Shown piece by piece: positions 33,322 to 62,403 of a DNA stretch of 64,000 bases. Location of the stretch: NCBI GenBank assembly GCA_964500895.1, contig CAZCQP010000006.1, forward strand, positions 9,211 to 73,210, written 5' to 3'. The position numbers were made by a program, and so were the translations under genes. The first letter of the stretch is position 1, and each line of letters opens with the position of its first letter. Below the pieces are notes generated by a model that did not search any database, was not told where the DNA came from, and worked only from the letters and a program-made list of their open reading frames with translations. Source of the DNA: an uncultured Eubacteriales bacterium. GTDB taxonomy: Bacteria; Bacillota; Clostridia; Lachnospirales; JAISER01.

Positions 33322-33338
33322 TAAAAATAATGCAACTG

Positions 33339-33404
33339 TTTGGGCGGTCTCTGACCGCCCAAATTGAACAACAGTCCAGAGGTGGGGGCGGCACTTGACC
33401 GCCC
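33339..33404 (+). other. two near-identical GC-rich hairpins in the glmE-mal spacer
   Basis: TTTGGGCGGTC-TCT-GACCGCCCAAA (33339-33363) and GGGCGG-CACTTGA-CCGCCC (33386-33404). Neither is followed by a good T-run. Confidence 0.6.
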
Positions 33405-33448
33405 AACCCTTTCCCTTAAAGTGTTTGATTCATTGAGGAGGAAAACCA

Positions 33449-34690: not shown

Positions 34691-34709
34691 TTATAAATTC
34701 TGAAAGAAG

Positions 34710-36101: not shown

Positions 36102-36409
36102 AGCTCTTTGACATTGCAGACGTTATCCGCAGTAAAAACTCCGGCCCTTACGAATTAACTTTTGATATTATCTTTAAAGATGTTGACATGTTTAAAAAAG
36201 TATGGGATGCTAAAGTGATTAACACCCAAAGCTTTGCTGCCCTGTACCATATTCCTGAAACCGACATCATCAATATCTTGGCTTTTGAACCAGCCAAGGC
36301 CATTAAAATCACCATTAAACGGCCCATCTGCTCCGGTGACTTAGGGGAGCGGGATGTGTACGGCGCACAACAGCATGCCCCATTGATGGGGTTCACATTT
36401 GAACTGTAG
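36098..36409 (+). CDS. DUF4387-like small protein
   Basis: 103 aa. IRSKNSGPYELTFDIIF (RSKN motif) and GERDVYGAQQH. Confidence 0.6.
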   Translation: MKLFDIADVIRSKNSGPYELTFDIIFKDVDMFKKVWDAKVINTQSFAALYHIPETDIINILAFEPAKAIKITIKRPICSGDLGERDVYGAQQHAPLMGFTFEL

Positions 36410-36456
36410 TACCTGTATTTAAAACTTTGATATACACGTGCTAAGGAGTGGTTAAG

Positions 36457-38481: not shown

Positions 38482-38543
38482 TTAAAAAGCTTCGTTCGCC
38501 CCCTGGGCGGACGAAGCTTTTAGACAAGAAAGGAACGAGTTTC

Positions 38544-39449
38544 ATGCCAAAATTAGTGGAATGCATCCCCAATTTCAGCGAAGGCCGGAACAAAGACGTG
38601 ATTGAAGCGCTGGTGGCTTGTGCCAAAAGCGCACCCGGCGTCATTTTGCTGGACCATTCTTCCGACGAAAGCCACAACCGCAGCGTGTTCACCCTTATCG
38701 GTGACCCAGAGAATTTGCAAGAAGCCGTTTTCCGCCTGGTGAAGCTGGCCAGCGAAAAAATAGACATGACCAAGCACACTGGGGAGCACCCCCGCATGGG
38801 TGCCACGGACGTGGTGCCTTTTGTGCCCGTGCAAGGGGTGACCATGGAGGAATGCGTGGCCATGGCCAAAGCAACCGCCCAGCGCATTAACCAGGAACTG
38901 AACATTCCCATCTTCCTGTACGAAGATGCCGCCACCAGCGAAGGCCGCCGGAATTTGGCGGTGGTGCGCAAAGGTCAATTTGAAGGAATGCCTGAAAAAC
39001 TGTTGCAGCCGGAATGGGCGCCGGATTTTGGTGAACGTAAAATTCACCCCACCGCCGGGGTAACGGCTGTTTCTGCCAGAATGCCTTTGGTGGCCTTCAA
39101 CGTGAACTTAAACACTGCCGACTTGTCCATCGCCAACAAAATTGCCAAGGTGGTGCGGGGTTCCAGCGGCGGGTTTAAATACTGCAAAGCCATTGGGGTC
39201 ATGCTGGAAGACCGGAACATTGCCCAAGTATCCATGAACATGGTGAACTACGAGGGCACACCTTTATACCTGGCTTATGAAACCATTCGCATGGAAGCCA
39301 AACGGTATGGTGTGTCCATTCTGGGCAGCGAAATCATTGGGGTAACCCCTGCCAAAGCCCTCATTGACAGTGCCCTGTACTACATGCAGGTGGAAGATTT
39401 TGACTACAACAAGCAAGTGCTGGAAAACCACGTGATTGCCAATTCATGA
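38544..39449 (+). CDS. ftcD: glutamate formimidoyltransferase
   Basis: The LVECIPNFSEGRN N-terminus is characteristic of the family. 301 aa. Confidence 0.92.
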   Translation: MPKLVECIPNFSEGRNKDVIEALVACAKSAPGVILLDHSSDESHNRSVFTLIGDPENLQEAVFRLVKLASEKIDMTKHTGEHPRMGATDVVPFVPVQGVTMEECVAMAKATAQRINQELNIPIFLYEDAATSEGRRNLAVVRKGQFEGMPEKLLQPEWAPDFGERKIHPTAGVTAVSARMPLVAFNVNLNTADLSIANKIAKVVRGSSGGFKYCKAIGVMLEDRNIAQVSMNMVNYEGTPLYLAYETIRMEAKRYGVSILGSEIIGVTPAKALIDSALYYMQVEDFDYNKQVLENHVIANS

Positions 39450-39462
39450 AATGGGTGAAGAA

Positions 39463-40092
39463 ATGAAGCTAACAGAGATGACGGTTTCTCAATTTATAGA
39501 TACCCTTTATTCCGATGCACCTGCCCCTGGTGGCGGCAGCGCGGCGGCATTGTCCGGGGCGCTGGGCATAAGCCTGGTGGCCATGGTAGCCGCCTTAACC
39601 GCCGGAAAAGAGAAGTACAAGGAATATGACGCCTTGATGCAGGATATTCTGGAAAGAAGCCAGGGTTTAAAGGAAAAGCTGACACACGCCATAGACGCAG
39701 ACACAGAAGCTTTTAACGGGGTTAGCGCTGTGTTTGCCATGCCTAAAGCCACAGAGGAAGACAAGGCCAACCGCAAAGCCGCCATGCAGGAAGCGCTGAA
39801 AGAAGCAGCACGGGTGCCCTTGGATGTAATGCATTTAGCGGTAGATGCATTGGGCTTGGCGGAAGCCGCTCTGGGCAAAGCAAACCCCAACGCCGCCAGT
39901 GACTTAGGGGTGGCTGCCATTCAGTTAAAAACAGCCCTTCAAGGGGCGTGGCTGAACGTGTGCATCAATTTATCGGGCATTCAAGACGAAAGTTTTGTGG
40001 CCGATTGCCGGGCGAAAGGGCAAGCTTGCCTGAACCGGGGCGTGGCCTATGCAGACCGGGTGTATGAAGGGATCTTAAGTCAGGTACAATAA
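39463..40092 (+). CDS. fchA: formimidoyltetrahydrofolate cyclodeaminase (cyclodeaminase/cyclohydrolase family)
   Basis: APAPGGGSAAALSGALGISLVAMV motif. The start is uncertain (39436-39463). Confidence 0.85.
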   Translation: MKLTEMTVSQFIDTLYSDAPAPGGGSAAALSGALGISLVAMVAALTAGKEKYKEYDALMQDILERSQGLKEKLTHAIDADTEAFNGVSAVFAMPKATEEDKANRKAAMQEALKEAARVPLDVMHLAVDALGLAEAALGKANPNAASDLGVAAIQLKTALQGAWLNVCINLSGIQDESFVADCRAKGQACLNRGVAYADRVYEGILSQVQ

Positions 40093-46066: not shown

Positions 46067-46094
46067 TTGACAAAATAAAGACTTATGATAAAAT
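46067..46094 (+). promoter_or_regulatory. putative sigma-A promoter of eutV-eutW
   Basis: TTGACA (46067-46072), 16 nt, TAAAAT (46089-46094). Confidence 0.5.
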
Positions 46095-46216
46095 TAAATA
46101 TGACCAGCGTGTAATTTTTATATCAAAGAATTAAAGTATAAAGTGAAAATAAAAAGTGAAAAGTGTACAAATGGTTTAGGAATGAGTGCATATTATCGGT
46201 GGAAAGGAATTATGCG

Positions 46217-46789
46217 ATGTCAGTAAAAGTCGTTATTGCCGAAGATGAGCCGATCATAAAAATGGATATAAGAGAAATCCTTGAAAGCAGAGGGTACGAT
46301 GTGGTGGGGGAAGCATCGGACGGCTATGATGTTGTAGAAATTTGCAGAAGCAAAAAGCCGGACCTTGTAATCATGGATATAAAAATGCCATTGTTTGACG
46401 GCCTGAAGGCCGCAGAAGTCATTAAAAATGAAAAGCTGGCCCGCTGTGTCATGTTGTTGACGGCATATAGTGATAAAGCCATGCTGGAGCAAGCCAAAAA
46501 GGCCAATGTGATGGGATACCTTATCAAGCCGGTGGCCGAAGCATCTTTAGTGCCGGCGATTGAAATTGCCTTGGCCAAACAGGACGAAATAGACGCCATG
46601 GAGCAAGATTATCAGAAAACGAAAGCGGCCCTGGAATCTCGGAAAGTGGTTGAAAAAGCCAAGGGCATTTTAATGAAAAGAGATAATCTTAGTGAAGAAG
46701 AAGCGTATAGTTATTTAAGAAAGGTGGCAATGAGTAAAGCGTGTACTATAGCCGATATTGCCAAGATTATCATAGCATCAGAGCAATAA
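46217..46789 (+). CDS. eutV: ANTAR-domain response regulator (EutV-like)
   Basis: REC domain (VVIAEDEP ... DLVIMDIKMP) plus a C-terminal ANTAR domain (RKVVEKAKGILM ... EEEAYSYLRKVAMS). Confidence 0.92.
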   Translation: MSVKVVIAEDEPIIKMDIREILESRGYDVVGEASDGYDVVEICRSKKPDLVIMDIKMPLFDGLKAAEVIKNEKLARCVMLLTAYSDKAMLEQAKKANVMGYLIKPVAEASLVPAIEIALAKQDEIDAMEQDYQKTKAALESRKVVEKAKGILMKRDNLSEEEAYSYLRKVAMSKACTIADIAKIIIASEQ

Positions 46790-46797
46790 ATAAGCGC

Positions 46798-48189
46798 ATG
46801 ATGATAGAAGTTTGCAGCAAGTATACCCATGCGACCGAAAGTGACATACAGAAGCTATTGCAAGTGGGGGAAAGCTTGCCCATTATTGGTGAGCTTGAAG
46901 GCTGCGATATGTTCATTGATTGTTTTACAAAAGATGCCCGCCATGCTGTAGTGGTGGCCCAATATAACCCGCACACTGCAACATCTTTTTACAGCGATAG
47001 CATTGTGGGGCATTTCATGCATAGGCATAACGAGCCGGGGGTTTTTCGCACGCTGGAAACAGGCGTGCCGTCCCGGGAAGTGAAGGCCATTGTACAGCAG
47101 GACTTTGTGATACGCCAAAACGTTAGCCCCATAAGAAACGATGAGGATAAAATTATTGGCGTGCTCATTATGGAGCGCAACATTATCAATGCGGCCAATT
47201 CTGAAGAGCGCATTCGTTTGCATGAAAAAATGCAAAGGGAACGCATGAGTAGCGATGAAAACGACTTGTTTAGCATCGTGTCCCATATTGACGAAGCCAT
47301 CATTTATTTCAACACCATGGGCACAGCGGTGTTCGCAAATAAAAATGCACAAAAACTATACAAGAACCTTGGTTATAACGACGAAATTGTAGGTATGAGG
47401 TTTGACAATTTGGTTCTTGGAAGTTATACTATAGACGATGTGGTCGAAAAAAAGTACATTGAACATGCAGAGGTAAAAATCGGGAAATATACGCTCACCA
47501 TTGTGCATGCGGCTATTATCGAAGACGACCAATGCATTGGCATTGTCATTCTCATTAATGACAAGACCGACAAAGAGAATAGCCACAAAGAGCTTATCTT
47601 GAAGTCGGCCGCCATTGAAGAGATACACCACAGAGTTAAAAACAACCTACAGACGATTGTCAGCCTAATCCGTCTGCAAGCCAGAAGAAGCGGCCAGGTC
47701 GAAGTCAAAAAAGTGTGCGACTCCATCATCAGCCGGATTTTCAGCATATCCATCACCCATGAGATTTTGTCTGTTAAAGGTGTGGATTCCATCGACGTCA
47801 AGGTGATGCTTTGCCGGATGGCTGAAAACACCAAAAGCTATATGATGGGCGACGGTTTTGATTTAGACATCCATGTGGTTGGCCAGGGTTTTAATGTGCC
47901 GTCTGCTTCGGCCACGGCCATTGCTATGATTGTGAATGAATTGCTTCAAAATTCCGTCAAGCATGGTTTTGTGGGAAGAAGCCGGGGGGAAATTTCCATC
48001 CGCACATCCCAGGGGGATATTTATTCATGCATTGTTGTGGAGGATGATGGTGCCGGGTTTATAGAAGGCGCCAAAAAGGAAGAAAGCCTGGGGTTGAAGC
48101 TGGTGAATAGCCTAATTAAGGACAAGCTGGGCGGTAGTATCATCATTGATACATCCACAAAAGGTACAAAGATAACACTTTTGTTTTAA
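46798..48189 (+). CDS. eutW: sensor histidine kinase (EutW-like)
   Basis: HHRVKNNLQTIVSLIRLQ H-box and a C-terminal HATPase domain. Immediately follows eutV. Confidence 0.88.
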   Translation: MMIEVCSKYTHATESDIQKLLQVGESLPIIGELEGCDMFIDCFTKDARHAVVVAQYNPHTATSFYSDSIVGHFMHRHNEPGVFRTLETGVPSREVKAIVQQDFVIRQNVSPIRNDEDKIIGVLIMERNIINAANSEERIRLHEKMQRERMSSDENDLFSIVSHIDEAIIYFNTMGTAVFANKNAQKLYKNLGYNDEIVGMRFDNLVLGSYTIDDVVEKKYIEHAEVKIGKYTLTIVHAAIIEDDQCIGIVILINDKTDKENSHKELILKSAAIEEIHHRVKNNLQTIVSLIRLQARRSGQVEVKKVCDSIISRIFSISITHEILSVKGVDSIDVKVMLCRMAENTKSYMMGDGFDLDIHVVGQGFNVPSASATAIAMIVNELLQNSVKHGFVGRSRGEISIRTSQGDIYSCIVVEDDGAGFIEGAKKEESLGLKLVNSLIKDKLGGSIIIDTSTKGTKITLLF

Positions 48190-48227
48190 GCTTAAATAAA
48201 TGTTTGCTTTTTTTCAATTTCATACTT

Positions 48228-48267
48228 GATATGCAACGGCGTATATCAATAACGGGCAACGAAGCTC
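48228..48267 (+). promoter_or_regulatory. ANTAR target: two tandem hexaloop hairpins
   Basis: P1 is GATATGC-AACGGC-GTATATC (48228-48247). P2 is GGGC-AACGAA-GCTC (48254-48267). Both loops have A at position 1 and G at position 4, and the P2 3' arm overlaps the terminator's 5' arm. Confidence 0.8.
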
Positions 48268-48305
48268 AAAGAATCCCTATAAGGGTTTTTTTGAGCTTTT
48301 TTATT
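48262..48305 (+). terminator. intrinsic terminator controlled by the ANTAR leader
   Basis: AAGCTCAAA ... TTTGAGCTT long stem with an inner CCCT/AGGG helix, followed by TTTTTTATTTT. Confidence 0.8.
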
Positions 48306-48370
48306 TTGGTTATAGTGCCCCTATAGCAGATGGCTATAGGCTATAAACATACAAAAGGAAGGGTTGAAAA

Positions 48371-49738
48371 ATGAAACTGAAAACAGCTTTACATGGCAAT
48401 GTTTTTCAATTCAATAGCTTAAAAGAAGTTTTCGGAAAAGCAAACGAAGAAAAATCTGCGGATATGATTATGGGGATTGGTGCCCGCTCTGTGTCTGAAA
48501 GGGTCGCCGCCAAAGTGGTGCTTAGCGAACTGACGCTGGAGCAAATACGCAACAATCCGCTCATTCCGTATGAAAGCGATGAAGTAACAAGGGTTATCGA
48601 GGATGGCATCAATGAAACCATCTACAAAAGCATCAAGTCTAAAACCGTGGGGGAACTTAGAAATTATATTCTCGACCACAAGACCACCAACAAAGACTTG
48701 GACTGCCTGCGCCAAGGCCTGAACGCCGAAATGATTGCGGCCGTGACCAAGCTGATGAGCAACATGGACTTGGTGTACGGTGCCAGAAAAATGCGTAACA
48801 GCGCCAAATGCAAATATGATATTGGCCTGGAAGGCACATTATCATTCCGTTTGCAGCCCAACCACCCCATGGACAACCCCAAAGGTATTCTGGCATCCAT
48901 AATGGAAGGCTTGAGCTATGGCAGCGGCGACGCCGTGCTTGGTGTAAACCCTGTGGAAGACAATGTGGAAGGCACAACCCGCATCATGAACACACTGTAC
49001 GACTTCATGTTAAAGTGGGACATTCCAACCCACACCTGCGTGCTGTCCCACATTACAACGCAAATGGAGGCTGTTAAAAAGGGCGCACCGGTTTCCATGT
49101 TGTTTCAAAGCGTGGCAGGCACGCAACCGGCTAACGAAGGTTTTGGTGTGAATGAAGCCATTTTAAACGAAGCCTTCGAGATTATTAAAAAGCACGGCAT
49201 TGCACCCGGGCCGAACCTGATGTATTTTGAAACCGGCCAAGGTTCTGAATGCAGCCTGGATGCCGACCTGGGCGTAGACGAAATGACCCTGGAGGCAAGA
49301 ACATACGGCTACATTAAAAAGTATGCACCGTTTATGGTGAACAATGTATCAGGCTTTATTGGGCCAGAAACCTTGTATGACGGCAAGCAGATGATTCGTG
49401 CCAACTTGGAAGATCACTTTATGGGCAAGCTCACCGGTCTGCCCATGGGAATGGCACCTTGCTACACCAACCACACGGGCATTGACCAAGGCGACCAGGA
49501 AATTGCAACCATGCTCTTGGCTATGGCTGGGTCTAATTACTACATGGGCGTGGCCTGTGGCGACGACGTGATGTTGAGCTATCAGGACACCAGCTTCCAC
49601 GATGACGCCACATTGCGGGAACTTTTAAACCTTAAACCCGCCAAAGAATTTTTTGAATGGACAATCAAAATGGGCATTCTGGATGAAAATGGCCGTTTAG
49701 GTGAAAGAGCGGGCGATGCATCCATCTTTTTAAAATAA
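48371..49738 (+). CDS. ethanolamine ammonia-lyase large-subunit paralog, divergent (EutB')
   Basis: 455 aa, collinear with EutB (MKLKTALHGN ..., RLQPN, GVNPV, YFETGQGS). It reads GLPMGMAPCYTNH where the canonical copy has GISMGCDACYTNH. Confidence 0.9.
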   Translation: MKLKTALHGNVFQFNSLKEVFGKANEEKSADMIMGIGARSVSERVAAKVVLSELTLEQIRNNPLIPYESDEVTRVIEDGINETIYKSIKSKTVGELRNYILDHKTTNKDLDCLRQGLNAEMIAAVTKLMSNMDLVYGARKMRNSAKCKYDIGLEGTLSFRLQPNHPMDNPKGILASIMEGLSYGSGDAVLGVNPVEDNVEGTTRIMNTLYDFMLKWDIPTHTCVLSHITTQMEAVKKGAPVSMLFQSVAGTQPANEGFGVNEAILNEAFEIIKKHGIAPGPNLMYFETGQGSECSLDADLGVDEMTLEARTYGYIKKYAPFMVNNVSGFIGPETLYDGKQMIRANLEDHFMGKLTGLPMGMAPCYTNHTGIDQGDQEIATMLLAMAGSNYYMGVACGDDVMLSYQDTSFHDDATLRELLNLKPAKEFFEWTIKMGILDENGRLGERAGDASIFLK

Positions 49739-49758
49739 ATATGGAGGGGTGAAAGTCG

Positions 49759-50646
49759 GTGGATAAAGCAAGCTTGGAAAGCGTGATCAGAGGTGTCATT
49801 CAAGAAATGACAAAAGAAAACGCTGGACAGTTACAACGCAATGAACCGTGTGGTCAATTAGGCGCAGCCGATTGCGGCTGTGATGGGGCTGTGGAAGACA
49901 TTACAACCGTTCAGCTGAACCAGGTGCTGAACGTGCCAAACCCGGAAAACAGAGAAGCCTATATGGAACTGAAACAGGCCACCCCGGCCAGGCTGGGCGT
50001 TTGGAGAGCAGGCCCCCGCCTGACCACCAGCACCCTGCTACGTTTCCGGGCAGACCATGCGGCAGCCATGGACGCTGTGTTTAGCGAAGTGGACGAAGCG
50101 TTGCTTACACGTAACAACCTGTTTACCGTACATACCACGTCGAAAGACAAAGTGCAGTTTTTGTCGAACCCGGCCACGGGCAGGTGTTTTGATGAAGCAA
50201 ACACGCAAATCATTAAAGAAAAGTGTGTCCATGCACCTCAAGTGCAAATTATCGTGGCGGATGGGTTAAGCTCCACGTCCATAGAAGCAAACATCGAGGA
50301 CATGATTCCGTCACTGGTGCAGGGCTTAAAAGGCCATGGGCTAACCATGGGCACACCGTTCTTTATTAAGCATGGACGGGTAGGGGCCATGGACGCCGTG
50401 ACGGAAGCATTAGATGCTGAGGTCACCGTGTTGCTCATTGGTGAAAGGCCGGGCTTGGTAACCGGCGAAAGCATGAGCTGCTATATGACGTACAAAGGGC
50501 GCGTAGGCATGGCCGAATCTATGCGCACGGTGGTGTCCAACATTTACAAAAACGGCACACCGCCCACCGAAGCAGGCGCTCACGTTGCAGACATTGTGAA
50601 GCTTATGATTGAGCGCAAGGCCAGCGGGCTAGATTTAAAGCTGTAG
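49759..50646 (+). CDS. ethanolamine ammonia-lyase small-subunit paralog (EutC')
   Basis: GTG start. [20 protein letters not shown] and LIGERPGL motifs. N-terminal amphipathic helix SLESVIRGVIQEM. Confidence 0.9.
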   Translation: MDKASLESVIRGVIQEMTKENAGQLQRNEPCGQLGAADCGCDGAVEDITTVQLNQVLNVPNPENREAYMELKQATPARLGVWRAGPRLTTSTLLRFRADHAAAMDAVFSEVDEALLTRNNLFTVHTTSKDKVQFLSNPATGRCFDEANTQIIKEKCVHAPQVQIIVADGLSSTSIEANIEDMIPSLVQGLKGHGLTMGTPFFIKHGRVGAMDAVTEALDAEVTVLLIGERPGLVTGESMSCYMTYKGRVGMAESMRTVVSNIYKNGTPPTEAGAHVADIVKLMIERKASGLDLKL

Positions 50647-50687
50647 TACATACAGCTAAAAATAGTAAAGAAGAGGAAGGTGTCTGT

Positions 50688-51341
50688 ATGACCAACGATG
50701 CATTAAAAAGTAGCGTATTAAGCGCAAGAATTATTCCAAATGTGAATGAAGACATGGTAAAGGAATTCAACCTGCCTGCAGGGCACCGCAGCATTGGCAT
50801 GTTTACGGCCGACTGCGATGATGTGTCCTACACGGCTATGGACGAAGCCACCAAGCGGGTGGACGTTAAAGTGGTGTATGGCAAAAGCTTTTACGGCGGT
50901 GCGGCCAACGCCAACACCAAGCTGGCCGGTGAAGTGATTGGTATCATTTCCGGTGCAAGCCCCGCAGAAGTAAAAAGCGGCTTAGATGCCATCGTGGACG
51001 TGGTGGAAAACGAAGCCCATTTCATTAGCGCCAACGAAGACGACAGTGTGGTTTATTACGCACAGTGTATTTCCAGAACAGGCTCCTATTTGTCTCAAGT
51101 GGCCAACATTCCAGAAGGACAACCTTTGGCCTATCTCATCGCCCCTCCATTGGAAGCCATGTATGGGCTGGATGCGGCACTGAAGGCGGCAGATGTGACC
51201 ATGGTGGCATTTTATGGCCCGCCATCTGAAACAAACTTTGGCGGCGGCTTGCTGACGGGAAGTCAATCAGCCTGTAAAGCCGCATGTGATGCGTTTGCAG
51301 ACGCTGTAAAGGCCGTTGCCGCGAACCCAACTAAATATTAA
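50688..51341 (+). CDS. eutL: BMC-T shell protein EutL
   Basis: 217 aa. SARIIPNVNEDMVKEFNLP ... IGMFTADCDDVSYTAMDEATK. Confidence 0.92.
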   Translation: MTNDALKSSVLSARIIPNVNEDMVKEFNLPAGHRSIGMFTADCDDVSYTAMDEATKRVDVKVVYGKSFYGGAANANTKLAGEVIGIISGASPAEVKSGLDAIVDVVENEAHFISANEDDSVVYYAQCISRTGSYLSQVANIPEGQPLAYLIAPPLEAMYGLDAALKAADVTMVAFYGPPSETNFGGGLLTGSQSACKAACDAFADAVKAVAANPTKY

Positions 51342-51354
51342 GAGGTGATTCGCC

Positions 51355-51966
51355 ATGCAGGCAATCGGTATGATTGAAACCAAAGGCTTGACGGCTTCCA
51401 TTGAAGCGCTGGATGCGATGGTGAAATCAGCCAATGTTAAATTGGTGACTAAGCAAAATATAGGCGGTGCCCTGATAACCGTTGTTGTAGAAGGCGATGT
51501 GGGTGCGGTGAAAGCGGCTGTAGATGCGGGCGTATCTGCGGCACAGAAGGTGGGAACGGTTGTTTCCGCACATGTCATTCCCCGGTGCAGCCAGGACGTT
51601 GGCATGGTTTTGCTGGGTGCGGCCCAGGAAAATGTGCAGGATAGCGTGCAGGAAAGCATAGCCCCCGTACAGCCCGTTGCGGACAATGCGCCAGAGGAGA
51701 CCGCCTGCCCAGATGAACCACAGATGCCGGAAGAAGAACAGACCTTACCGGAAGAGCCAGAAGAACCGGTTGAACAGGAAGAAGCAAAGCTTGCACCGGC
51801 CTTACCTGTAAAAACAAGAGAAGAACTGAACGGCATGAAGTTAGCCGAACTGCGGCAACTGGCCAGACAGCTTCCCATCCAAGGTTTGAAATATCAGGAG
51901 ATTAAGCTTCTGAACCAGGAAACCTTAATAGAACATATTTTAAAGTGCTACGAAGCACAACAATAA
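51355..51966 (+). CDS. BMC-H shell protein with an acidic Pro/Glu linker and a C-terminal helix-extended-helix (Rho_N/SAP-like) module (EutK-like)
   Basis: N-terminal BMC domain ([26 protein letters not shown]), an approximately 65-aa P/E/Q-rich linker, then [39 protein letters not shown]. Confidence 0.8.
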
Positions 51967-51988
51967 TCTTATACATGGAGGTATACAT

Positions 51989-52282
51989 ATGTCTATAACA
52001 AATGCATTAGGTTTGGTTGAAACAAAAGGGCTGGTAGGCGCCATTGAAGCAGCCGATGCCATGGTTAAAGCAGCCAATGTAACACTGGTTGGCAAAGAAA
52101 AAATCGGCAGCGGTTTAGTGACCGTCATGATTAGAGGCGACGTTGGTGCAGTCAAGGCAGCTACCGATGCTGGTGCAGCTGCTGCGGCAAGAATTAGCGA
52201 AGTGGTATCTGTACACGTTATTCCACGGCCCCACGGCGAAGTGGAGATGATTTTACCGAAAAGCTTGGTAATCACTGAATAA
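51989..52282 (+). CDS. eutM: BMC-H shell protein EutM/PduA type
   Basis: 97 aa. [26 protein letters not shown] ... VHVIPRPH. Confidence 0.94.
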
Positions 52283-52312
52283 TAAAAGCCCATCTGGAAA
52301 GGTTGTGGCAGC

Positions 52313-53143
52313 ATGTTTTGTGCTGAACGGGTGGATGCGTTTATAGGCAGCGTGGAGCAGTCGTTAACCGTAAACGGTGCATTTCAAAGCCCAGATGAAC
52401 TGATGGTGGGCGTGGATTTAGGCACGGCATACATTGTGGTGGTGGTTTTAAACGGGCAAGGCCAGCCTGTGGCCTGTGAATTGGCATTTTCGCAAGTGCT
52501 GAAAGACGGGTTGGTGGTTGACTACATCGGTGCGGTGAACACCGTCCGGCAACTAAAGGCCAAGCTTGAAAACAGGTTAGGCGTTGCTCTAACAAAGGCA
52601 GCCATTGCAGTGCCGCCGGGCACTTCCCCTGGCGACCAGCGCACCCATGTAAATGTGGTGGAAGCTTGCGAAATGGATGTGACCGCCATTGTTGAAGAAC
52701 CCACAGCGGCCAATGCTGTCTTAAACATTCAGCAAGGCGTTATCGTGGACATTGGCGGCGGCACCACGGGGCTTTCAGTGCTGGACGGCGGAAAAGTTAT
52801 CTATACGGCAGACGAAGCAACCGGCGGAACCCACCTGAGCCTGGTTTTGTCCGGCCGGTATAAAGTGTCTTTTGAAGAAGCGGAAAGCTTAAAAAAAGAT
52901 GCCAGACGCCAAAAAGAAGTGCTACTGGCTGTAACCCCGGTTATTCAGAAAATGTGCGCCATTGTGCGGGACAACATCCAGCGCTTTAACGTGGAGGATG
53001 TGTATCTGGTGGGAGGCACGTGCTGTTTAAAAGGCGTAGAGGACATTTTCTCAAAAGAACTGGGCATCCGGGTGTACAAACCGGCCAATCCGTTTTTGGT
53101 GACGCCCACAGGCATTGCTTTATGCTGCCGGGGCGAAGATTAA
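52313..53143 (+). CDS. eutJ: ethanolamine utilization protein EutJ (actin/Hsp70-fold chaperone-like)
   Basis: VGVDLGTAYIV ... VDIGGGTTGLSV ... ATGGTHLS. Confidence 0.9.
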   Translation: MFCAERVDAFIGSVEQSLTVNGAFQSPDELMVGVDLGTAYIVVVVLNGQGQPVACELAFSQVLKDGLVVDYIGAVNTVRQLKAKLENRLGVALTKAAIAVPPGTSPGDQRTHVNVVEACEMDVTAIVEEPTAANAVLNIQQGVIVDIGGGTTGLSVLDGGKVIYTADEATGGTHLSLVLSGRYKVSFEEAESLKKDARRQKEVLLAVTPVIQKMCAIVRDNIQRFNVEDVYLVGGTCCLKGVEDIFSKELGIRVYKPANPFLVTPTGIALCCRGED

Positions 53144-53185
53144 GTTATGGCAGATGGTGCACATTCAGCCATAGGGAGGCTTTAC

Positions 53186-53455
53186 ATGATTATTGGCAAA
53201 GTGATAGGCAATGTGTGGGCCACCAGCAAAAGCAAGGGGTTGGAGGGCATGAAGCTGATGGTTGTGGAACCGTACGGCTATGACGGCCATCCGAAACAAT
53301 ACCCCATTGTTGCAGCAGACAGCATTGGCGCAGGCATTGGCGAAACGGTGCTTGTGGTTTCCGGCAGTTCTGCCCGGTGTGTGGCCGAAAACAAAGATAT
53401 TCCGGTGGACAGTATGATTGTGGGGATTATTGACGCAATAGACTTGCAACAGTAA
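53186..53455 (+). CDS. eutN: BMC-P vertex protein EutN/CcmL
   Basis: MIIGKVIGNVWATSK ... LVVSGSSAR. GGGAGG SD before the ATG at 53186. Confidence 0.9.
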   Translation: MIIGKVIGNVWATSKSKGLEGMKLMVVEPYGYDGHPKQYPIVAADSIGAGIGETVLVVSGSSARCVAENKDIPVDSMIVGIIDAIDLQQ

Positions 53456-53503
53456 AAGCATGATTATGCACACAAAAATTAATTCAGGAAAAGGAGCGGC
53501 AGC

Positions 53504-54592
53504 ATGGGAATAAGCGATATTATTATATACATTATGTTGTTTTTCATGGTTGTTGGTATTGTTGACAAGTTGGTTTTTAAAAGCAAATGGGGTTATGGAA
53601 CCCAATTTGAAGAAGGCGTGCAGGCCATGGGTGCGCTGGCATTGGCTATGGTTGGTATCATGTGCTTTGCACCCGTTTTGGGCAATGTACTGACACCGAT
53701 TATCAGCCCATTATATGCCATAATCGGTGCAGACCCGGCCATGGTAGCCGGCTCGCTGCTGGCCATTGACATGGGTGGGTACCCGTTGGCCAAAGTTATG
53801 ACGGAAAATGCACAAATCCATAACCTTTCAGGTATTTACTTGGGCGCTATGATGGGTGCTACCGTTGTGTTTTCTATTCCGGTTTCGCTGGGCATCATTC
53901 AAGATTCGGACAAGCCTTTTCTTGCAAAAGGTATGTTGGCAGGTTTTATAGCCATTCCCTTCGGCGCATTTGCATCGGGCATTGCGGACGGCATTGGCAT
54001 GGGCATTTTGTTGGTGAATCTGATTCCTTCCATCGTTTTAGCAGGTTTGTTTGCACTTGGGCTTTTCTTCATTCCAGAAACTATGCTGAAAGGGTTTAAC
54101 ATTTTTTCAGTGGCCATTACGGTGTTAATTACCGTTTGCTTTGGCGCTGCCATTATTGAAGCGCTGTCAGGCATTGTCATCATTCCCGGTATGGACCCCA
54201 TTGGCCCGCAGCTTGAAGTGGTGGGAATCATCGCCATTACGCTGGCCGGTGCGTACCCGCTGGTGCATTTCATTACAAAAGTGTTTAGTAAACCGCTGAT
54301 GGTGCTGGGCAAGCTGATGGGTGTAAACGATGTGACAGCGGCGGGCATGATTGCCACGCTGGCCAACAACATCCCCATGTTCGGCATGATGAAAGACATG
54401 GACAACAAAGGCAAAGTGCTTTCTGTGGCATTTTCCGTGTGTGCAGCGTTTACATTCGGTGACCATTTGGGTTACGCTTCGGCCCAAGACCCTAAAGTCA
54501 TTATGCCCATGATTGCCGGCAAGTTGGTTGGCGGTGTGGTTGCTATCATTATCGCAAGCCTGTTTGTGGGCAAAGAGCATAAAGCAAGCTAG
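53504..54592 (+). CDS. eutH: ethanolamine permease/facilitator EutH
   Basis: 362-aa polytopic membrane protein. GADPAMVAGSLLAIDMGGYPLA. Confidence 0.88.
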   Translation: MGISDIIIYIMLFFMVVGIVDKLVFKSKWGYGTQFEEGVQAMGALALAMVGIMCFAPVLGNVLTPIISPLYAIIGADPAMVAGSLLAIDMGGYPLAKVMTENAQIHNLSGIYLGAMMGATVVFSIPVSLGIIQDSDKPFLAKGMLAGFIAIPFGAFASGIADGIGMGILLVNLIPSIVLAGLFALGLFFIPETMLKGFNIFSVAITVLITVCFGAAIIEALSGIVIIPGMDPIGPQLEVVGIIAITLAGAYPLVHFITKVFSKPLMVLGKLMGVNDVTAAGMIATLANNIPMFGMMKDMDNKGKVLSVAFSVCAAFTFGDHLGYASAQDPKVIMPMIAGKLVGGVVAIIIASLFVGKEHKAS

Positions 54593-54606
54593 GAGGAAGA
54601 TCTTTC

Positions 54607-55065
54607 ATGGAAATTGATGCAAAGTTAATCGAATCAATGATACGCAAGGTGTTACAAGAAGAAGCAGCAAAAAACGCAGACCCAGGGCTGGCAGGGCTTC
54701 GCCGTGTGGACAGCTCCGGCGTGATGGCGGTGAACACCAATAAAGTGGTGTGTGAAAAGTTTCCTTTCCCAATCCCCAGCCAGGACGTTTATTTAAAAGA
54801 CATTATGACTGTGGAAGAAAGCCCTCGTTTGGGCTGCGGTATGATGGAAATGAAAAACGGCGCAAGCTTCGACTGGACGCTGAAATATGACGAAGTGGAC
54901 TATGTGATTGAAGGCACGCTGGAAATCATCATAGACGGCCGCAAAGTAAGCGCTAGCGCAGGAGAAGTGCTTTTTATCCCCAAAAACTCCAGCATTACTT
55001 TCAGTACGCCAGACCAGGCACGGTTCTTATACGTGGTATACCCCGCCAACTGGTCCGAGCAATAG
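54607..55065 (+). CDS. eutQ: cupin-fold EutQ
   Basis: 152 aa. C-terminal cupin (DEVDYVIEGTLEIIIDGRK) and an N-terminal amphipathic helix LIESMIRKVLQEE. Confidence 0.85.
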   Translation: MEIDAKLIESMIRKVLQEEAAKNADPGLAGLRRVDSSGVMAVNTNKVVCEKFPFPIPSQDVYLKDIMTVEESPRLGCGMMEMKNGASFDWTLKYDEVDYVIEGTLEIIIDGRKVSASAGEVLFIPKNSSITFSTPDQARFLYVVYPANWSEQ

Positions 55066-55078
55066 GAGATGGCTTTCA

Positions 55079-56248
55079 ATGCATTATTTTGAAGCGTGCC
55101 CGAAAATTTGCTTCGGCGAGGACGCCTTGAATTATTTAGACAGCATAAAAGATGAAAAAATTTGTGTCATTGCCGACCCGTTTATGGTCAGTTCCGGCAT
55201 TGCACAAGACGTGACAAAGGTATTCAGGGAAAAAGGGTATGCTTACACCATATTTTCAGATGTAGAGCCGGATCCTTCCATCGCAACCATCAGCAGGGGT
55301 GTGCATCACATCTTCCAGGAAAAACCGGATGTGGTAATTGCGCTGGGCGGCGGTTCGGCCATTGATGCAGCCAAGGCCATCCTCTATTTTTGCACCCGGC
55401 TGAAAGGGCAAATGATGGATGAAAAGTATATTCACAAGCCATTTTTCATTGCCATTCCCACAACAAGCGGCACGGGTTCGGAAGTAACGTCTTATGCGGT
55501 GGTCACAGACCCATTAAACAACGTGAAAATACCCATAAGCGCCAAAAGGATGATTCCAGATGTGGCCATTCTGTGGCCCCAGTTTACCAAGACGCTACCA
55601 TTGGCTATTGTGGCCAATACGGGCATGGATGTGTTAACCCACGCCGTTGAAGCCTTTGTATCCAAAAATGCAAACCCATTTTCAGATATGTATGCCAAGG
55701 AAGCGGCACAGAAAGTGTTTAAATACCTGATTCCCCTGTACGAAAACCTGAACAATACGTCGCTGCGTGAGGAAATGTACATTGCATCTACCATGGCAGG
55801 GCTGGCCTTCACCAATTCCGGCTTGGGCATTAACCACAGCATTGCCCATACCATTGGGGCGGATTTTCACATTCCCCACGGCTTGGCCAACAGCATTGTT
55901 TTGCCATACGTCATTGCCTACAATGCAGGGTTGACCAAATATGTGGCCAATGGTGTGCATGAGAAATACGGGGTGCTGGCCCGTTTCATGGGCCTTCCCT
56001 TGGCAGATGATGTTGCGGCGTGTAAAGGATTGGTGATGGCCGTTCAAGCTTTTAACCAAAAGTTTGGCATCAAGCAAGCCTTAAAAGAGCATGGCATAGA
56101 CCCAACAACCTTTGCAGACAGGCTGGATGTTTCGGCAGACAAAATACTTGCCGATATGTGTACATCGGCAAACCCGGTGGACATTTCAAAGGAAAGCCTG
56201 AAGGGGCTGCTGATGGACATTTATGAAGGCAACGGAATCATGTTATAA
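55079..56248 (+). CDS. eutG: iron-containing alcohol dehydrogenase EutG
   Basis: [20 protein letters not shown] and the HxxxH metal motifs (HSIAHTIG). Confidence 0.9.
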
Positions 56249-56261
56249 GGATGGTGCAGGT

Positions 56262-56609
56262 GTGGGCGAAGAAAAGCAAAGAGTGATACAGGAATATGTG
56301 CCCGGCAAACAGATTACGCTGGCACATTTGATAGCCAACCCCATTGCAGGTCTGCACAAAAAGCTGGGCCTGTTTGAAGACAGCCGAAACGCCATTGGCA
56401 TTCTGACCATCACTCCGTCGGAAGCCGCCATCATTGCAGCGGATGTGGCCACAAAGTCTGCCGCTGTAGACATTGGCTTTATCGACCGGTTCAGCGGTTC
56501 GCTCATGATAACAGGCGATGTTTCTGCGGTGGAATCGGCCCTTAAAGGTGTGCTGGAACTGCTGTCGGGTAAGATGGGTTTTACCCCGTCGGACATCACC
56601 CGCTCATAG
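56262..56609 (+). CDS. eutS: circularly permuted BMC shell protein EutS/PduU
   Basis: [20 protein letters not shown] ... [17 protein letters not shown]. The GTG start at 56262 is chosen by N-terminal alignment to remembered EutS. Confidence 0.88.
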
Positions 56610-56630
56610 TTTGCGCCAAAGGAGAGACAT

Positions 56631-57059
56631 ATGAAAAGAGTCATCCTGATTGGTAAGACGGGCAGCGGAAAAACAACGCTTATTCAAAAGATAGAAGCGT
56701 TGGACATGCAGTATAAAAAAACCCAAAGCATTGAGTCTTACTACCAGTTTATAGACACGCCGGGGGAATATTTAGAGCACAAAGCATATTACGGCGCATT
56801 GCTTATTTCTTCCGCCGAAGCGGACATCATTGGCTTGGTGGAGGACTGCACGGCGGAAGAAGTATGGCTGCCACCCATGATGTCCTCGGCCTTTTCCAAA
56901 GAAACCATTGGCATTATTACTAAAATGGACAAGGCTGAATCAAGCATGGTGGACAAAGCCAGGCAACGGCTGAAAGAAGCCGGTGCAGGTGAAATCTTTG
57001 AAGTGTCGGCTGTAGAAGACCTGGGTGTAGAGGCGTTAAAAGCCTATATTGACCGGTAG
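56631..57059 (+). CDS. eutP: EutP/PduV small GTPase
   Basis: [15 protein letters not shown] ... IDTPGEY ... ITKMD. Confidence 0.9.
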
Positions 57060-57075
57060 GAAGGGGGTGTCAGGC

Positions 57076-58515
57076 TTGAGAGAAGTGATACTAAGTGTGG
57101 GCATTGATATTGGCACCAGCACAACACAAGTTGTGTTTTCCAATATTACCATTGAAAACACGGCTTCCGATTTTAGTGTGCCAAGGATTGCCATTATTGA
57201 CAAAGAAATTGTCTATCGCAGCCACATCCACTTTACACCCCTTAAATCACCCATTGAAATCGACATGGAAAAGGTAAGAGATATTGTCGTAGAAGAATAT
57301 GGGAAAGCCGGTATTGACAAGCAGAACATCCAGACCGGTGCAGTGGTGATTACCGGTGAAACAGCACGCAAAGAAAATGCTAACGAAGTGGTGCTGTACC
57401 TGAGCGATTTTGCAGGAGACTTTGTGGTGGCCACCGCCGGGCCAGACCTTGAAAGCATCATTGCCGGTAGAGGGGCTGGGGTGGACGTCTATTCCAAAGA
57501 GCACTTGACCAATGCAGCCAACTATGACGTTGGCGGGGGCACATCCAACTTTGTGCTGTTTAAAAACGGTGAGTTGATGGCCACCAGCTGCCTGGACATT
57601 GGCGGGCGGCTCATTAAGGTGGACAAGGCCACCAAGCGCATCACGTATATTGCGCCTAAAATAAAAAAGCTGATTGACTATAAAAACATTGGCTTGCGGG
57701 AAGGCGACCAGGCAGATTTGGGCAAATTGCAGCAGGTGACGGCGGCAATGGCCAACTTGCTGGCCATGTCTCTGGGCACGGTGGAAAAAGACAGCTTTTA
57801 CCCCACCATTCTCACCATTGAAGGCAACGACGTTGTGTTGAAAGAGCCGGTGAAAAACATTTGTTTTTCCGGCGGCGTGGCGGATTATGTAGGAGAAGCC
57901 ACCCAGGAGGACGTGTTTGCCTACGGGGACATCGGCATTTTGCTGGGCCGTGCCATCCATGCATGCGAAGGCTTAAAGTGTATCAACCGGGTACACGCAA
58001 CCGAAACCATTCGGGCCACTGTGGTGGGCGCCGGGTCCCACATTACGGAAATAAGCGGCAGCACCATTGAATATGGCGAAAATATTTTGCCGCTGAAAAA
58101 TGTACCCATTCTCAAATTGACAAAAGAAGAAGAAACGGACAATGCAACCATTGCCCGAGCCATTAGGGATAAACTGAACTGGTTTACCTTAGAGGATGAA
58201 AAGAACGTACCGGTGGTGGCCGTGGCCATGACGGGTAAAAAAAGCATTGGATTTAAGGAAGTAACCAATGTAGCCCAAGGCATTGTGGCAGGCTGTGAAA
58301 AAATGATTGCCGCCAACATGCCGCTGGTGGTGGTGGTGGAGTTTGACATGGCCAAGGTGCTGGGGCAAACCCTTAACCGGCTTTTGAACTACCGGCACCC
58401 CATTGTCTGCATCGACATGATTACCGTGGAAAACGGGGACTACATTGATATTGGAAAGCCTGTGGGCGGTGGCAGTGTGCTGCCTGTAGTCATTAAGACG
58501 TTGGTTTTCAAGTAG
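57076..58515 (+). CDS. eutA: ethanolamine ammonia-lyase reactivase EutA
   Basis: [17 protein letters not shown] ... YDVGGGTSN. The ORF is open from 57049. TTG 57076 is favoured (GGAAGGGGG SD 9 nt upstream; matches remembered EutA N-terminal length). Confidence 0.88.
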
Positions 58516-58566
58516 CACGCATCGTGCACATGCACTTGATTTATTTTACGAAAGTGAGGGATTACT

Positions 58567-59931
58567 CTGAAGCTGAAAACAAGTTTATACGGGAAAACAT
58601 ATGCATTTAATAGCTTAAAAGAAGTATTGGCAAAAGCCAATGAAGAAAAATCCGGCGACAAGCTGGCCGGTATTGCAGCGGAATCCTCCGAGGAACGCAT
58701 TGCGGCCAAGGTGGTTCTGTCTGAAGTGACTGTTGGAGAGTTGCGCAACAGCCCTGTGGTGCCTTATGAAGAAGATGAGGTTACCAGAGTGATTCAGGAC
58801 AGCGTGAATGAAAAAATTCACAGCGAGTTCAAAAATAAAACCATTTCAGAGCTTCGTGAATACATATTGGACGAAAATACAACGGGCAACGACATTAAGA
58901 GAATGTCTAAAGGCATCACCTCTGAAGTTGTGGCCGGTGTAACCAAGCTCATGTCCAACCTGGACTTGATTTACGGGGCCAAAAAAATTAACATTACCGC
59001 CCATTGCAACACCACCATTGGTTTGCCGGGCACTTTTTCCACCAGATTGCAGCCAAACCACCCCACAGACAATGTGGACGGCATTTTGGCCTCTTTGATG
59101 GAAGGATTAAGCTATGGCGTGGGTGATGCGGTCCTTGGCCTGAACCCTGTGGACGATTCTGTGGCCAGCGTTAGCCGGGTGCTGGAACTGTTTCATGAAT
59201 TTAGAAACAAATGGAGCATCCCAACCCAAATTTGTGTGTTGGCTCACGTAACCACCCAGATGGAAGCCATTCGGAAAGGTGCGCCTTGCGACCTTGTTTT
59301 CCAATCCATTGCCGGTTCACAAAAAGGCAATACCGCTTTCGGTTTGGACGTTCAAATGCTGGACGAAGCCAAGGCGCTCATGTTATCCCACGGCACCTCC
59401 ACCGGCCCTAACGTGATGTATTTTGAAACAGGGCAAGGCTCTGAACTGTCTTCCGATGCACACAACGGCGCAGACCAGGTGACCATGGAAGCCCGCTGCT
59501 ATGGCTTGGCTAAACGGTATGACCCGTTTTTGGTTAACACCGTTGTTGGGTTCATCGGGCCGGAATATTTGTACGACTCCAAACAAGTGATTCGTGCCGG
59601 TCTGGAAGACCACTTTATGGGCAAGTTGACCGGCATCTCCATGGGCTGTGACGCCTGCTACACCAACCACATGAAAGCAGACCAGAACGACATTGAAAAC
59701 CTGGCTGTACTGCTTGTGGCGGCGGGCTGTAACTATGTGATGGGCATTCCTCATGGCGATGACGTGATGCTGAACTATCAGTGCACGGGTTACCACGAAG
59801 CCATGGCTTTAAGAGAACTGCTGGGGCTGCGGCCGATTAAAGAGTTTGAAACATGGATGGAACAAATTGGCATCATCAAAGATGGCAAAATGACAAAACG
59901 GATGGGCGACGCATCCATATTCTTGAAATAA
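58567..59931 (+). CDS. eutB: ethanolamine ammonia-lyase large subunit EutB (canonical copy), probable CTG start
   Basis: The ORF track starts at TTG 58627. The 20 in-frame codons upstream read LKLKTSLYGKTYAFNSLKEV, matching the conserved EutB N-terminus. GAGGG SD 6 nt before CTG 58567; in-frame TGA at 58555. Confidence 0.85.
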   Translation: MKLKTSLYGKTYAFNSLKEVLAKANEEKSGDKLAGIAAESSEERIAAKVVLSEVTVGELRNSPVVPYEEDEVTRVIQDSVNEKIHSEFKNKTISELREYILDENTTGNDIKRMSKGITSEVVAGVTKLMSNLDLIYGAKKINITAHCNTTIGLPGTFSTRLQPNHPTDNVDGILASLMEGLSYGVGDAVLGLNPVDDSVASVSRVLELFHEFRNKWSIPTQICVLAHVTTQMEAIRKGAPCDLVFQSIAGSQKGNTAFGLDVQMLDEAKALMLSHGTSTGPNVMYFETGQGSELSSDAHNGADQVTMEARCYGLAKRYDPFLVNTVVGFIGPEYLYDSKQVIRAGLEDHFMGKLTGISMGCDACYTNHMKADQNDIENLAVLLVAAGCNYVMGIPHGDDVMLNYQCTGYHEAMALRELLGLRPIKEFETWMEQIGIIKDGKMTKRMGDASIFLK

Positions 59932-59988
59932 ACCGAATGGGCCCACTTTGGGCGCTCACGTTCAATAATGAAAGAGGAGGCATAACCA

Positions 59989-60888
59989 GTGGTCAATGAA
60001 AACGAAATTAAAAGCATGATTGAAAAAGTATTGGCACAAATATTAAGTGAAGAAGCCGCCGGCCCCCAGGACACCCCACAGGCAGTTTCTGTAAAAGAAG
60101 ATACATGTGGCATTCAAGTGGATCCGGGTGCAATTGAAGACATTACGGCCATTGATTTAAAAGATCACTTCTTGGTGCCGGAACCTGCGGACAAAGAAGG
60201 ATATTTGGCCATGAAAAAATATACCCCTGCACGCCTTGGCGTGTGGCGGGCAGGCCCACGGTACAAAACTGTCACATCCCTGCGTTTCCGGGCAGACCAT
60301 GCCACAGCACAGGATTCCGTGTTTTCCAATGTTTCAGAAGATTTTGTGAAAGCAAACGGCTTTGTGTCTGTTCAAACAAGCTGCACGGATAAAGATGAAT
60401 ACGTTACCCGGCCAGACCTTGGCAAAACTTTTAGCAGTGAAACCACTGCCCAAATGAAAAAAGAACTGAAACACGGCATGAAGGTGCAAATTATGATTGG
60501 TGACGGCTTAAGTTCTGCCGCCATTGAAGCCAATATACCGGACATTTTGCCGTCCATCATTCAAGGGCTTTCTAGATACGGCATTGACGTTGGGCCCATT
60601 CCCTTCGTGAAATATTGCCGGGTTGGGGCCATGGATGCCATTGGCGAACTGACCGACGCAGACGTGGTGTGTTGCCTGATTGGTGAAAGACCAGGCCTTG
60701 TAACGGCTGAATCCATGAGCGCTTATATGGCGTATAAGCCCACGGTGAACATGCCGGAAGCCAGACGAACCGTTGTGTCTAACATTCACAAAGGTGGCAC
60801 CCCACCGGCAGAAGCAGGCGCCCATATTGCAGAACTTTTGAAGCTGATGCTGGATAAAAAAATGTCTGGTGTGGAACTGAAGCTGTAA
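59989..60888 (+). CDS. eutC: ethanolamine ammonia-lyase small subunit EutC (canonical copy)
   Basis: GTG start. [20 protein letters not shown] and LIGERPGL motifs. N-terminal helix [14 protein letters not shown]. Confidence 0.92.
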
Positions 60889-60903
60889 AGGAGGCAAACA
60901 GCC

Positions 60904-62367: not shown

Positions 62368-62403
62368 CACCTTAAAACGGCTATGAGAAGGGGGGGCTTG
62401 TGG

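Follow-up and report, generated by a model that had tools for sequence, protein, structure and literature searches.

A second ethanolamine ammonia-lyase pair in a clostridial microcompartment operon belongs to an old EutB subfamily with a probably remodelled amine sub-site

A single microcompartment operon of an uncultured Eubacteriales bacterium encodes two ethanolamine ammonia-lyases, and the pair at its head, here designated EutB'C', is very probably a functional and distinct isozyme: conservation among its homologues points to an old subfamily of the large subunit with a remodelled amine sub-site. The operon lies in a 64,000-nucleotide stretch of DNA (the window; GenBank assembly GCA_964500895.1, contig CAZCQP010000006.1, positions 9,211 to 73,210). 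Among radical B12 enzymes, ethanolamine ammonia-lyase is a textbook case and, to our knowledge, its five polar substrate ligands have been treated as fixed. EutB' represents a widespread natural lineage that gave up one of the five, aspartate 362 (D362), and gained an aspartate elsewhere.

An earlier, sequence-only reading of the window had recognized two complete EutB/EutC pairs, at 48371–50646 and 58567–60888, and open reading frames, Pfam and NCBIfam all bear this out; every motif that it quoted is present in the translations. On the plus strand, eutB' (48371–49738, 455 amino acids) is followed by eutC' (49759–50646, 295 amino acids), which starts with GTG downstream of the Shine–Dalgarno sequence GGAGGGG. 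The canonical eutB (58567–59931, 454 amino acids), with GCDAC, Y334, N403 and C406, is likewise followed by a canonical eutC (59989–60888, 299 amino acids). EutB' and EutB share 58% identity with a single gap near the C-terminus, and EutC' and EutC share 49%. Both large subunits match the EutB family model PF06751 end to end (647.9 bits for EutB' and 732 bits for the canonical copy, cut-off 25) and NF011649 (611.4 and 692 bits, cut-off 554), and both small subunits score above the cut-offs of PF05985 and NF003971 (274.9 and 299.7 bits for EutC', 286.6 and 313.8 bits for EutC). An AlphaFold2 (AF2) model of EutB' had a mean pLDDT (predicted local distance difference test) of 91.6 and, in Foldseek, matched Escherichia coli EutB (3abo_A) with a TM-score of 0.96, a root-mean-square deviation of 1.7 Å and 53% identity, and Listeria monocytogenes EutB (2qez) with a TM-score of 0.93. 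Family models and fold alike place EutB' within the EutB family, and one active-site feature of EC 4.3.1.7, D362, is missing from it.

Aligned by phmmer with the PDB sequences of Listeria (2qez) and E. coli (3abo) EutB, EutB' showed no gap up to about residue 437, so that E. coli numbering applies to it directly. These alignments show that EutB' retains R160 and Q162 (in RLQPN), N193 (GVNPV) and E287 (YFETGQGS), as well as the hydrophobic pocket residues F245, F329, M392 and L402. Residues 361–363 read M-A-P in EutB', C-D-C in E. coli and C-D-A in the in-window canonical EutB, and EutB' further carries N325, S327, T334, G338, A379, S403 and D406. We take R160, N193 and E287 to be ligands of the substrate 1-hydroxyl in the E. 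coli enzyme and Q162 to be a ligand of the amine; D362, which is said to contact the amine, is presumably a second amino-group ligand whose mutation cripples the E. coli enzyme. EutB' has the first four of these residues and lacks the fifth: with the alignment free of gaps, position 362 is alanine and no conserved aspartate occupies it, as the sequence-only reading had anticipated. The changed motif is also unseen in the characterized E. coli and Listeria enzymes and in the 120 close homologues of the canonical copy, all of which have D362, Y or F at 334 and C, T or S at 406 (N403 in 119). D362 is gone, but the aspartate is not simply lost: an invariant D406 co-varies with A362 and may stand in for it.

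Comparison of 88 EutB' with 27 canonical sequences revealed a set of clade-specific differences that are invariant or nearly so (S251T, T325N, V327S, Y/F334T, S338G, D362A, A363P, L379A and C/T/S406D), with C/V361M and N403S/A as further usual differences. A362 was found in 88/88 of the motif-selected EutB' members, and R160, Q162, N193, F245, E287, F329, M392 and L402 were 100% conserved in both groups. In the AF2 model, the changes map on or just after β6 (322–326), on or just after β7 (359–362) and to the segment past β8, elements that are neighbours on the catalytic face of the barrel; the D362 position is at the end of strand β7, and that of D406 is past β8. Several of the substituted side chains are smaller in EutB' (Y334T, N403S/A, V327S). 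Judged by conservation, the pattern is one of strong purifying selection and a rebuilt sub-site, not that of a dead paralogue. Variation was also seen in a Flavonifractor/Intestinimonas/Butyricicoccus subclade (L012, L061, L107), where RLQPN becomes RCQTN, RCQAN or RNQPN with R160 and Q162 fixed, so that residues 161 and 163, adjacent to substrate ligands, vary as well.

Of 468 sequences, 281 had A/D and 185 had D/non-D at residues 362/406; the exceptions were one V/D and one D/D. Given this covariation, the carboxylate at 362 looks relocated by 44 residues to 406, not merely lost. Inside the EutB' clade, an Acidaminococcales lineage (P0326, P0334) that is otherwise EutB'-like over its full length has A362D, D406N and S403N changed together. 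A metagenome-assembled genome (MAG) of Desulfovibrio sp. (L093) carries two adjacent EutB'-like genes, one with the standard GMAPC and the other a deep-branching copy with GMDPC and YQDT, that is, with both Asp362 and Asp406; this second copy may be an evolutionary intermediate. Three other apparent intermediates (P0347, P0357 and P0358), which join EutB' N-terminal marks to a canonical C-terminal motif, were discarded as evidence: their residues 1–345 are 100% identical to an EutB' sequence and the remainder is canonical-like, so they are most likely assembly chimeras. Such probable paralogue chimeras from metagenome assembly are a caution for automated surveys. The revertant EutB' of an Acidaminococcales MAG (L119, 564–11315), with GLDPC and YQNT, is encoded in a cluster outside any bacterial microcompartment (BMC) locus, comprising SBP_bac_5, eutB, eutC, eutA, an FmdA/AmdA-type amidase, a second SBP_bac_5 and two amidohydrolases. 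This composition suggests a pathway in which an amide such as an N-acylethanolamine is first split to supply the amino alcohol for the lyase.

The EutB' type is neither local nor recent. The 120 best homologues of EutB' (66–100% identity) were all nearer to it than is the in-window canonical EutB 10 kb downstream, and among the 117 in which the motif was readable it was GMAPC in 115, GMAPS in one and GMVPC in one, with D362 in none. A degenerate DNA pattern for MGMAPCYTNH matched the genomes of at least 107 species, a lower bound because Y365F/W variants exist. Matches came from Oscillospiraceae (Flavonifractor plautii, Pseudoflavonifractor capillosus, Intestinimonas, Butyricicoccus), from other Clostridia (Petrocella, Geosporobacter, Alkaliphilus, Clostridium sediminicola), and from Halanaerobium, Synergistaceae, Propionibacteriaceae, Nitriliruptorales, Anaerolineales, termite-gut Deltaproteobacteria, Desulfovibrionaceae and Spirochaetes. 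D362 was present in all but one of about 60 motif-covering family representatives clustered at 50% identity, a coarse set with many fragments and fusions that we used only to gauge the near-universality of D362. In neighbour-joining trees, EutB' formed one clade apart from the canonical clade that holds E. coli and Listeria, with or without the diagnostic columns, and a suggested phylogeny check thereby confirmed that the GMAPC type has a clade of its own. We found no description of an A362/D406 subfamily in the searchable literature on EutB paralogues, and the BMC catalogue is silent as well; a Pelobacter paper discusses duplicated fused eutBC and choline, as speculation only. The family models for EutB cannot tell the two types apart in annotation.

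Genomic contexts, examined with up to 10 kb of flank on either side, fall into several layouts. In a tandem layout, eutA-eutB-eutB'-eutC-eutL with a single EutC stands within full EUT2-type operons, as in Petrocella, Halanaerobium, Geosporobacter, Alkaliphilus, Synergistaceae, Candidatus Adiutrix and others; canonical EutB was directly upstream of eutB' in 21 of the 71 loci with enough flank. The layout of the window, eutV-eutW-eutB'-eutC'-shell-...-eutA-eutB-eutC, also occurs in a relative (L113) whose EutB' is 76% identical. In other BMC loci no large subunit besides EutB' was seen: in termite-gut Deltaproteobacteria (eutS-eutP-eutB'-eutC-eutL-eutE), in Tepidanaerobacteraceae (pduS-BMC-eutB'-eutC-eutH-eutP), in a full BMC operon ending eutA-eutB'-eutC' (L118), and in L028, L070 and L105. 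Such EutB'-only BMC loci may have EutH or an APC permease. Finally, eutB'C' occurs in smaller modules: in Intestinibacillus (L116) no BMC gene lies within 10 kb of eutV-eutW-eutB'-eutC', L117 has this module with eutL only, and eutB'C' adjoins housekeeping genes in Butyricicoccus and Synergistaceae. Around stand-alone eutB'C' in Butyricicoccus, Synergistaceae, Oscillospiraceae and Spirochaetes lie housekeeping or NhaC-type antiporter genes, which give no clue to a substrate.

Some of these loci have features of their own. In two Spirochaetes MAGs (L087, L111), EutB' lacks an adjacent EutC; its neighbours are a DNA polymerase III tau/gamma gene on one side and, on the other, a convergent gene for an NhaC-type Na+/H+ antiporter. 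The surroundings of a Halanaerobium locus (L003) likewise include an NhaC-type gene. In the BMC locus of Aminipila sp. (L115, 5678–9865), which includes EutB'C', an APC-family amino-acid permease replaces EutH and two successive ANTAR response regulators precede the kinase. The L118 operon has a CsoS1D_N-type shell gene (4522–5148; BMC-T, double-stacking) and a long Pta-type phosphotransacetylase, and recalls EUT3 of the BMC catalogue.

The small subunit follows a different history. EutC lies downstream of EutB' in 76 of the 87 loci with enough flank, and in tandem loci and some Anaerolineales loci EutB' has no EutC of its own. A separate EutC' family was considered and rejected: the neighbour-joining tree mixes copies that follow EutB' with copies that follow EutB, and the Anaerolineales duplicates are sisters. 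The proposal of a divergent EutB'C' pair consequently stands for the large subunit, which is distinct, but not for EutC', which is no distinct ancient partner; EutC has been duplicated repeatedly, and one EutC often serves both large subunits. On these trees and gene orders, the distinction between the lyase types is carried by the large subunit. Both in-window EutC copies do have the encapsulation-type amphipathic N-terminus that had been pointed out, seen in both translations (SLESVIRGVIQEM in the first) before a Pfam domain that covers residues 66–294 in EutC' and starts at residue 71 in EutC. The encapsulation-peptide-like helix of EutC' spans approximately residues 5–20, and the linker behind the helices is poorly conserved. 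Co-encapsulation of both enzymes in the shell is likely from these sequences.

The leader ahead of eutB' has the hallmarks of ANTAR control, which we defined as a pair of short hairpins whose hexaloops have A first and G fourth, competition between the second hairpin and an intrinsic terminator, and a cognate ANTAR regulator encoded nearby. Hairpin P1 (48226–48249, loop AACGGC) is followed by an alternative hairpin P2 (48254–48267, loop AACGAA) that overlaps the 5' arm of a strong terminator (48261–48299), itself followed by a U-run; the whole element spans 48226–48309 on the plus strand (sequence and RNA fold, z = −3.8). An EutV-like response regulator with an ANTAR output domain (Pfam Response_reg and ANTAR) is encoded upstream at 46163–46789 (+), probably starting at ATG 46214, with a promoter-like site at 46067–46094. 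A eutW-like sensor histidine kinase gene (46741–48189, +; Pfam PdtaS-type GAF, HisKA_2 and HATPase) probably starts at ATG 46798. A scan of the 64 kb gave no other dual-hexaloop site followed by a T-run, which supports the earlier description of a sole ANTAR leader ahead of eutB'; the leader motif is kept upstream of eutB' in L113. At Rfam gathering scores, no family was detected across the window, and no cobalamin riboswitch near eutVW or EutX-like RNA was seen.

Taken together, EutB'C' would be a second catalytically competent, adenosylcobalamin (AdoCbl)-dependent amino-alcohol ammonia-lyase in which the ammonium-holding carboxylate sits further out and the amine sub-site is enlarged. A substrate range shifted or broadened to ethanolamines that bear additional bulk on the nitrogen or next to it, with an aldehyde still produced, is to our minds close to an even prospect. 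It is favoured because the carboxylate leaves the wall of the amine site, its neighbours shrink and the carboxylate sits further out, and because eutB and eutB' are kept side by side across phyla. EutB' would keep the radical 1,2-amino shift, release an aldehyde, and accept or prefer bulkier ethanolamines such as N-methyl- or N,N-dimethylethanolamine or 2-amino-1-alkanols, with ethanolamine itself probably still used. Provided that acetaldehyde is still the product, the pathway could do without additional downstream enzymes, in keeping with the ordinary gene content of these loci. In the window, binding of EutV to the two-hairpin leader would let transcription proceed into eutB', the N-terminal peptide of EutC' would bring EutB' into the shell that houses EutBC, the shared EutE and EutG would consume the aldehyde from EutB'C', and EutA could reactivate either lyase.

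If specificity has shifted, many 'eut' loci would metabolise something other or more than ethanolamine, among them those of gut Oscillospiraceae (Flavonifractor, Intestinimonas, Pseudoflavonifractor), Synergistaceae, termite-gut Deltaproteobacteria and Anaerolineales, and operons like that of the window would pack two different lyases in one organelle. A bolder version, which we consider rather unlikely, is that the subfamily is a B12-dependent lyase that prefers N-methylethanolamine, N,N-dimethylethanolamine, choline or a 2-amino-1-alkanol over ethanolamine. It would then be a new microcompartment signature enzyme converting N-methylated substrates or choline to acetaldehyde and methylamine, a glycyl-radical-independent methylamine route in gut and sediment anaerobes, and EutB'-only loci would be mis-annotated as ethanolamine loci.

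Several observations weigh against a shifted range. The AF2 model is least confident in 325–340, 361–370 and 391–410, that is, in the remodelled segments, and the 362/406 covariation reflects mostly one ancient split plus one independent reversal. EutB' is accompanied by ordinary ethanolamine genes (EutH, EutA, EutT, EutQ and EutVW), and in the loci examined no extra enzyme or transporter indicated another substrate. Moreover, the EutW of the window shares 41–49% identity with EutW of tandem-type loci and 27–32% with EutW of EutB'-only modules; because it is of the tandem-locus type, the two enzymes probably respond to a shared inducing signal.

The main rival, a strictly ethanolamine-specific isozyme in which D406 does the job of D362, is in our view a serious if lesser possibility. 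The two forms would differ only in kinetics, suicide inactivation or expression, and would serve as high- and low-affinity or back-up forms where both occur. Several complete eut-like loci, with EutH, EutA, EutT, EutE and EutQ, have EutB' as their one large subunit, an arrangement that suits ordinary ethanolamine use no less well than an exotic substrate; EutB' is under EutVW/ANTAR control as in ordinary eut operons, and exactly one aspartate is present across 362/406 in 466 of the 468 sequences. In addition, Halanaerobium polyolivorans, with EutB' at L092, grows on ethanolamine (PMC10536098), and the two Eut operons of Flavonifractor plautii have been read as extra ethanolamine capacity (PMC7710108). 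Growth of Halanaerobium is uninformative about EutB', however, because canonical EutB is directly upstream of it in a Halanaerobium relative. Ethanolamine specificity also fits less well with the long joint retention of eutB and eutB' in several phyla, where they share one EutC, which argues for non-redundant functions, and at least nine fixed β6–β8 changes, mostly to smaller residues, exceed a one-for-one aspartate swap. If D406 does replace D362 for the same reaction, the subfamily would be a natural experiment on how ammonium is held during the 1,2-shift.

It is improbable that EutB' is a non-catalytic partner, forming mixed hexamers with EutB or acting as a scaffold or regulator inside the microcompartment. 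Such a role would agree with the loss of aspartate at 362, presumably essential in the E. coli enzyme, and with the absence of a dedicated EutC for EutB' in the tandem and some Anaerolineales loci; a precedent exists in the second aldehyde dehydrogenase copies of GRM1 loci, reported as putatively inactive (PMC8217296). Complete conservation of the retained polar and pocket residues (R160, Q162, N193, E287, F245, F329, M392, L402) in 88 sequences from many phyla speaks against it, as do the genomes in which EutB' has its own EutC and no canonical EutB nearby, whether in stand-alone modules or as the sole lyase beside EutA. A difference in cofactor use, such as selectivity for cobamide lower ligands in the gut, is still less probable than a non-catalytic role. 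Gut anaerobes generally meet many cobamides, and the two EutC copies of the window are only 49% identical, but the diagnostic changes surround the substrate site of the large subunit, not EutC, one EutC is common to both large subunits in many genomes, and the EutC tree contains no separate EutC' family. Finally, a recent redundant duplicate or decaying copy, suggested by nothing beyond the two pairs in one operon, is hardly conceivable given 58% and 49% identity (an old split), intact reading frames with good Shine–Dalgarno sites, conservation in at least 107 species, and GC content that matches the operon; the initial view that EutB'C' is no such copy is upheld by a monophyletic subfamily with invariant clade-specific residues.

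The surrounding operon was reconstructed from translations and Pfam. On the plus strand, the window beyond roughly 46.1 kb is a single eut-type microcompartment operon in the order eutV-like, eutW-like, a 180-nucleotide leader, eutB', eutC', eutL, two BMC-H genes, eutJ, eutN, eutH, eutQ, eutG, eutS, eutP, eutA, canonical eutB, eutC, eutE and a PduS/RnfC-like gene. GC content and GC at third codon positions (GC3) of eutB'C' are homogeneous with the remaining operon, and recent horizontal acquisition of the pair is for this reason unsupported. Downstream of eutC', a eutL-like BMC-T gene (50688–51341) is followed by a BMC-H gene with a long C-terminal extension (51355–51966; Pfam BMC), a second BMC-H gene (51989–52282), a eutJ-like gene (52313–53143) and the BMC-P gene eutN (53147–53455), assigned, apart from the first BMC-H gene, by translation and synteny with L113. 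Translation, L113 gene order and Pfam, and blastp to related loci identify eutH permease (53504–54592), eutQ (54607–55065), the Fe-alcohol dehydrogenase gene eutG (55079–56248), a eutS-like BMC gene (56223–56609), eutP (56631–57059) and the eutA reactivase gene (57049–58515). Beyond the canonical pair, whose eutC also encodes an N-terminal encapsulation-peptide-like helix, are eutE, an acylating aldehyde dehydrogenase with a C-terminal amphipathic tail (60904–62367; translation, with AldDH homologues in related loci), and a PduS/RnfC-like flavoprotein gene (62383–63753; Pfam, with PduS homologues in related loci). All of these genes are on the plus strand. The stretch 46163–63753 thereby contains the components of an EUT2-type locus (BMC-H, -T and -P, EutBC, EutA, acylating aldehyde dehydrogenase, alcohol dehydrogenase and EutVW), and no phosphotransacylase was seen in the operon up to the window end at 64000.

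Canonical eutB appears to start not at ATG, GTG or TTG but at CTG (58567), with GAGGG six bases 5' and an in-frame stop upstream at 58555–58557. The relative L113 has ATG at the matching position, and public annotation instead begins the gene at TTG 58627 (P0121, 434 amino acids), with 20 conserved residues lost. Three readings of the CTG are conceivable: use of CTG as an uncommon start codon, a down-mutation affecting the canonical gene, or an error in the sequencing. The C-terminal extension of the first BMC-H protein comprises approximately 125 residues, an acidic Pro/Glu-rich linker and then a helical domain, reminiscent of EutK, and BMC-H homologues with a C-terminal extension are present in most related loci. 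Upstream in the window (30444–40092) are genes for glutamate fermentation (MutL-like reactivase, glutamate mutase E chain, methylaspartate ammonia-lyase) and histidine degradation (urocanase, formiminotransferase, cyclodeaminase), which suggest an amino-acid-fermenting anaerobe with a second AdoCbl-dependent system nearby.

Among known systems, the EutBC enzymes of E. coli and Salmonella (EC 4.3.1.7; 3ABO) share fold, length and register with EutB', and their EutC partner has an N-terminal targeting helix, as in the window. EutB' differs from E. coli EutB by D362A, C361M, proline at 363, Y334T, N403S, T406D, T325N, V327S, S338G and L379A. Listeria monocytogenes EutB (2QEZ) is 77% identical to the canonical EutB of the window. 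With the Firmicute EUT2 operons under EutV/EutW ANTAR control, for which Enterococcus faecalis is the model, the window shares EutVW, a dual-hexaloop leader overlapping a terminator, and an EUT2-like set of shell and accessory genes. By contrast, its single ANTAR leader precedes eutB' and not eutP, eutG, eutS or eutA, an extra lyase pair heads the operon, and no cobalamin riboswitch or EutX-like RNA was detected. The gut bacterium Flavonifractor plautii (Oscillospiraceae) also has two eutBC sets, and strain ATCC 29863 has an EutB'-type gene behind eutV-eutW (L107), but its copies are in two separate loci (Rodriguez-Castaño et al. 2020, PMC7710108). That study called the copies highly similar, giving more efficient ethanolamine use, and did not note the active-site difference. 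The large subunits of the diol and glycerol dehydratases PduC and DhaB, likewise AdoCbl-dependent eliminases built on a TIM barrel, were the next-best Foldseek matches (TM-score of approximately 0.63); they differ in sequence (17–19% identity), in Ca2+-dependent diol binding and in being part of a three-subunit enzyme, and EutB' falls clearly within the EutB family.

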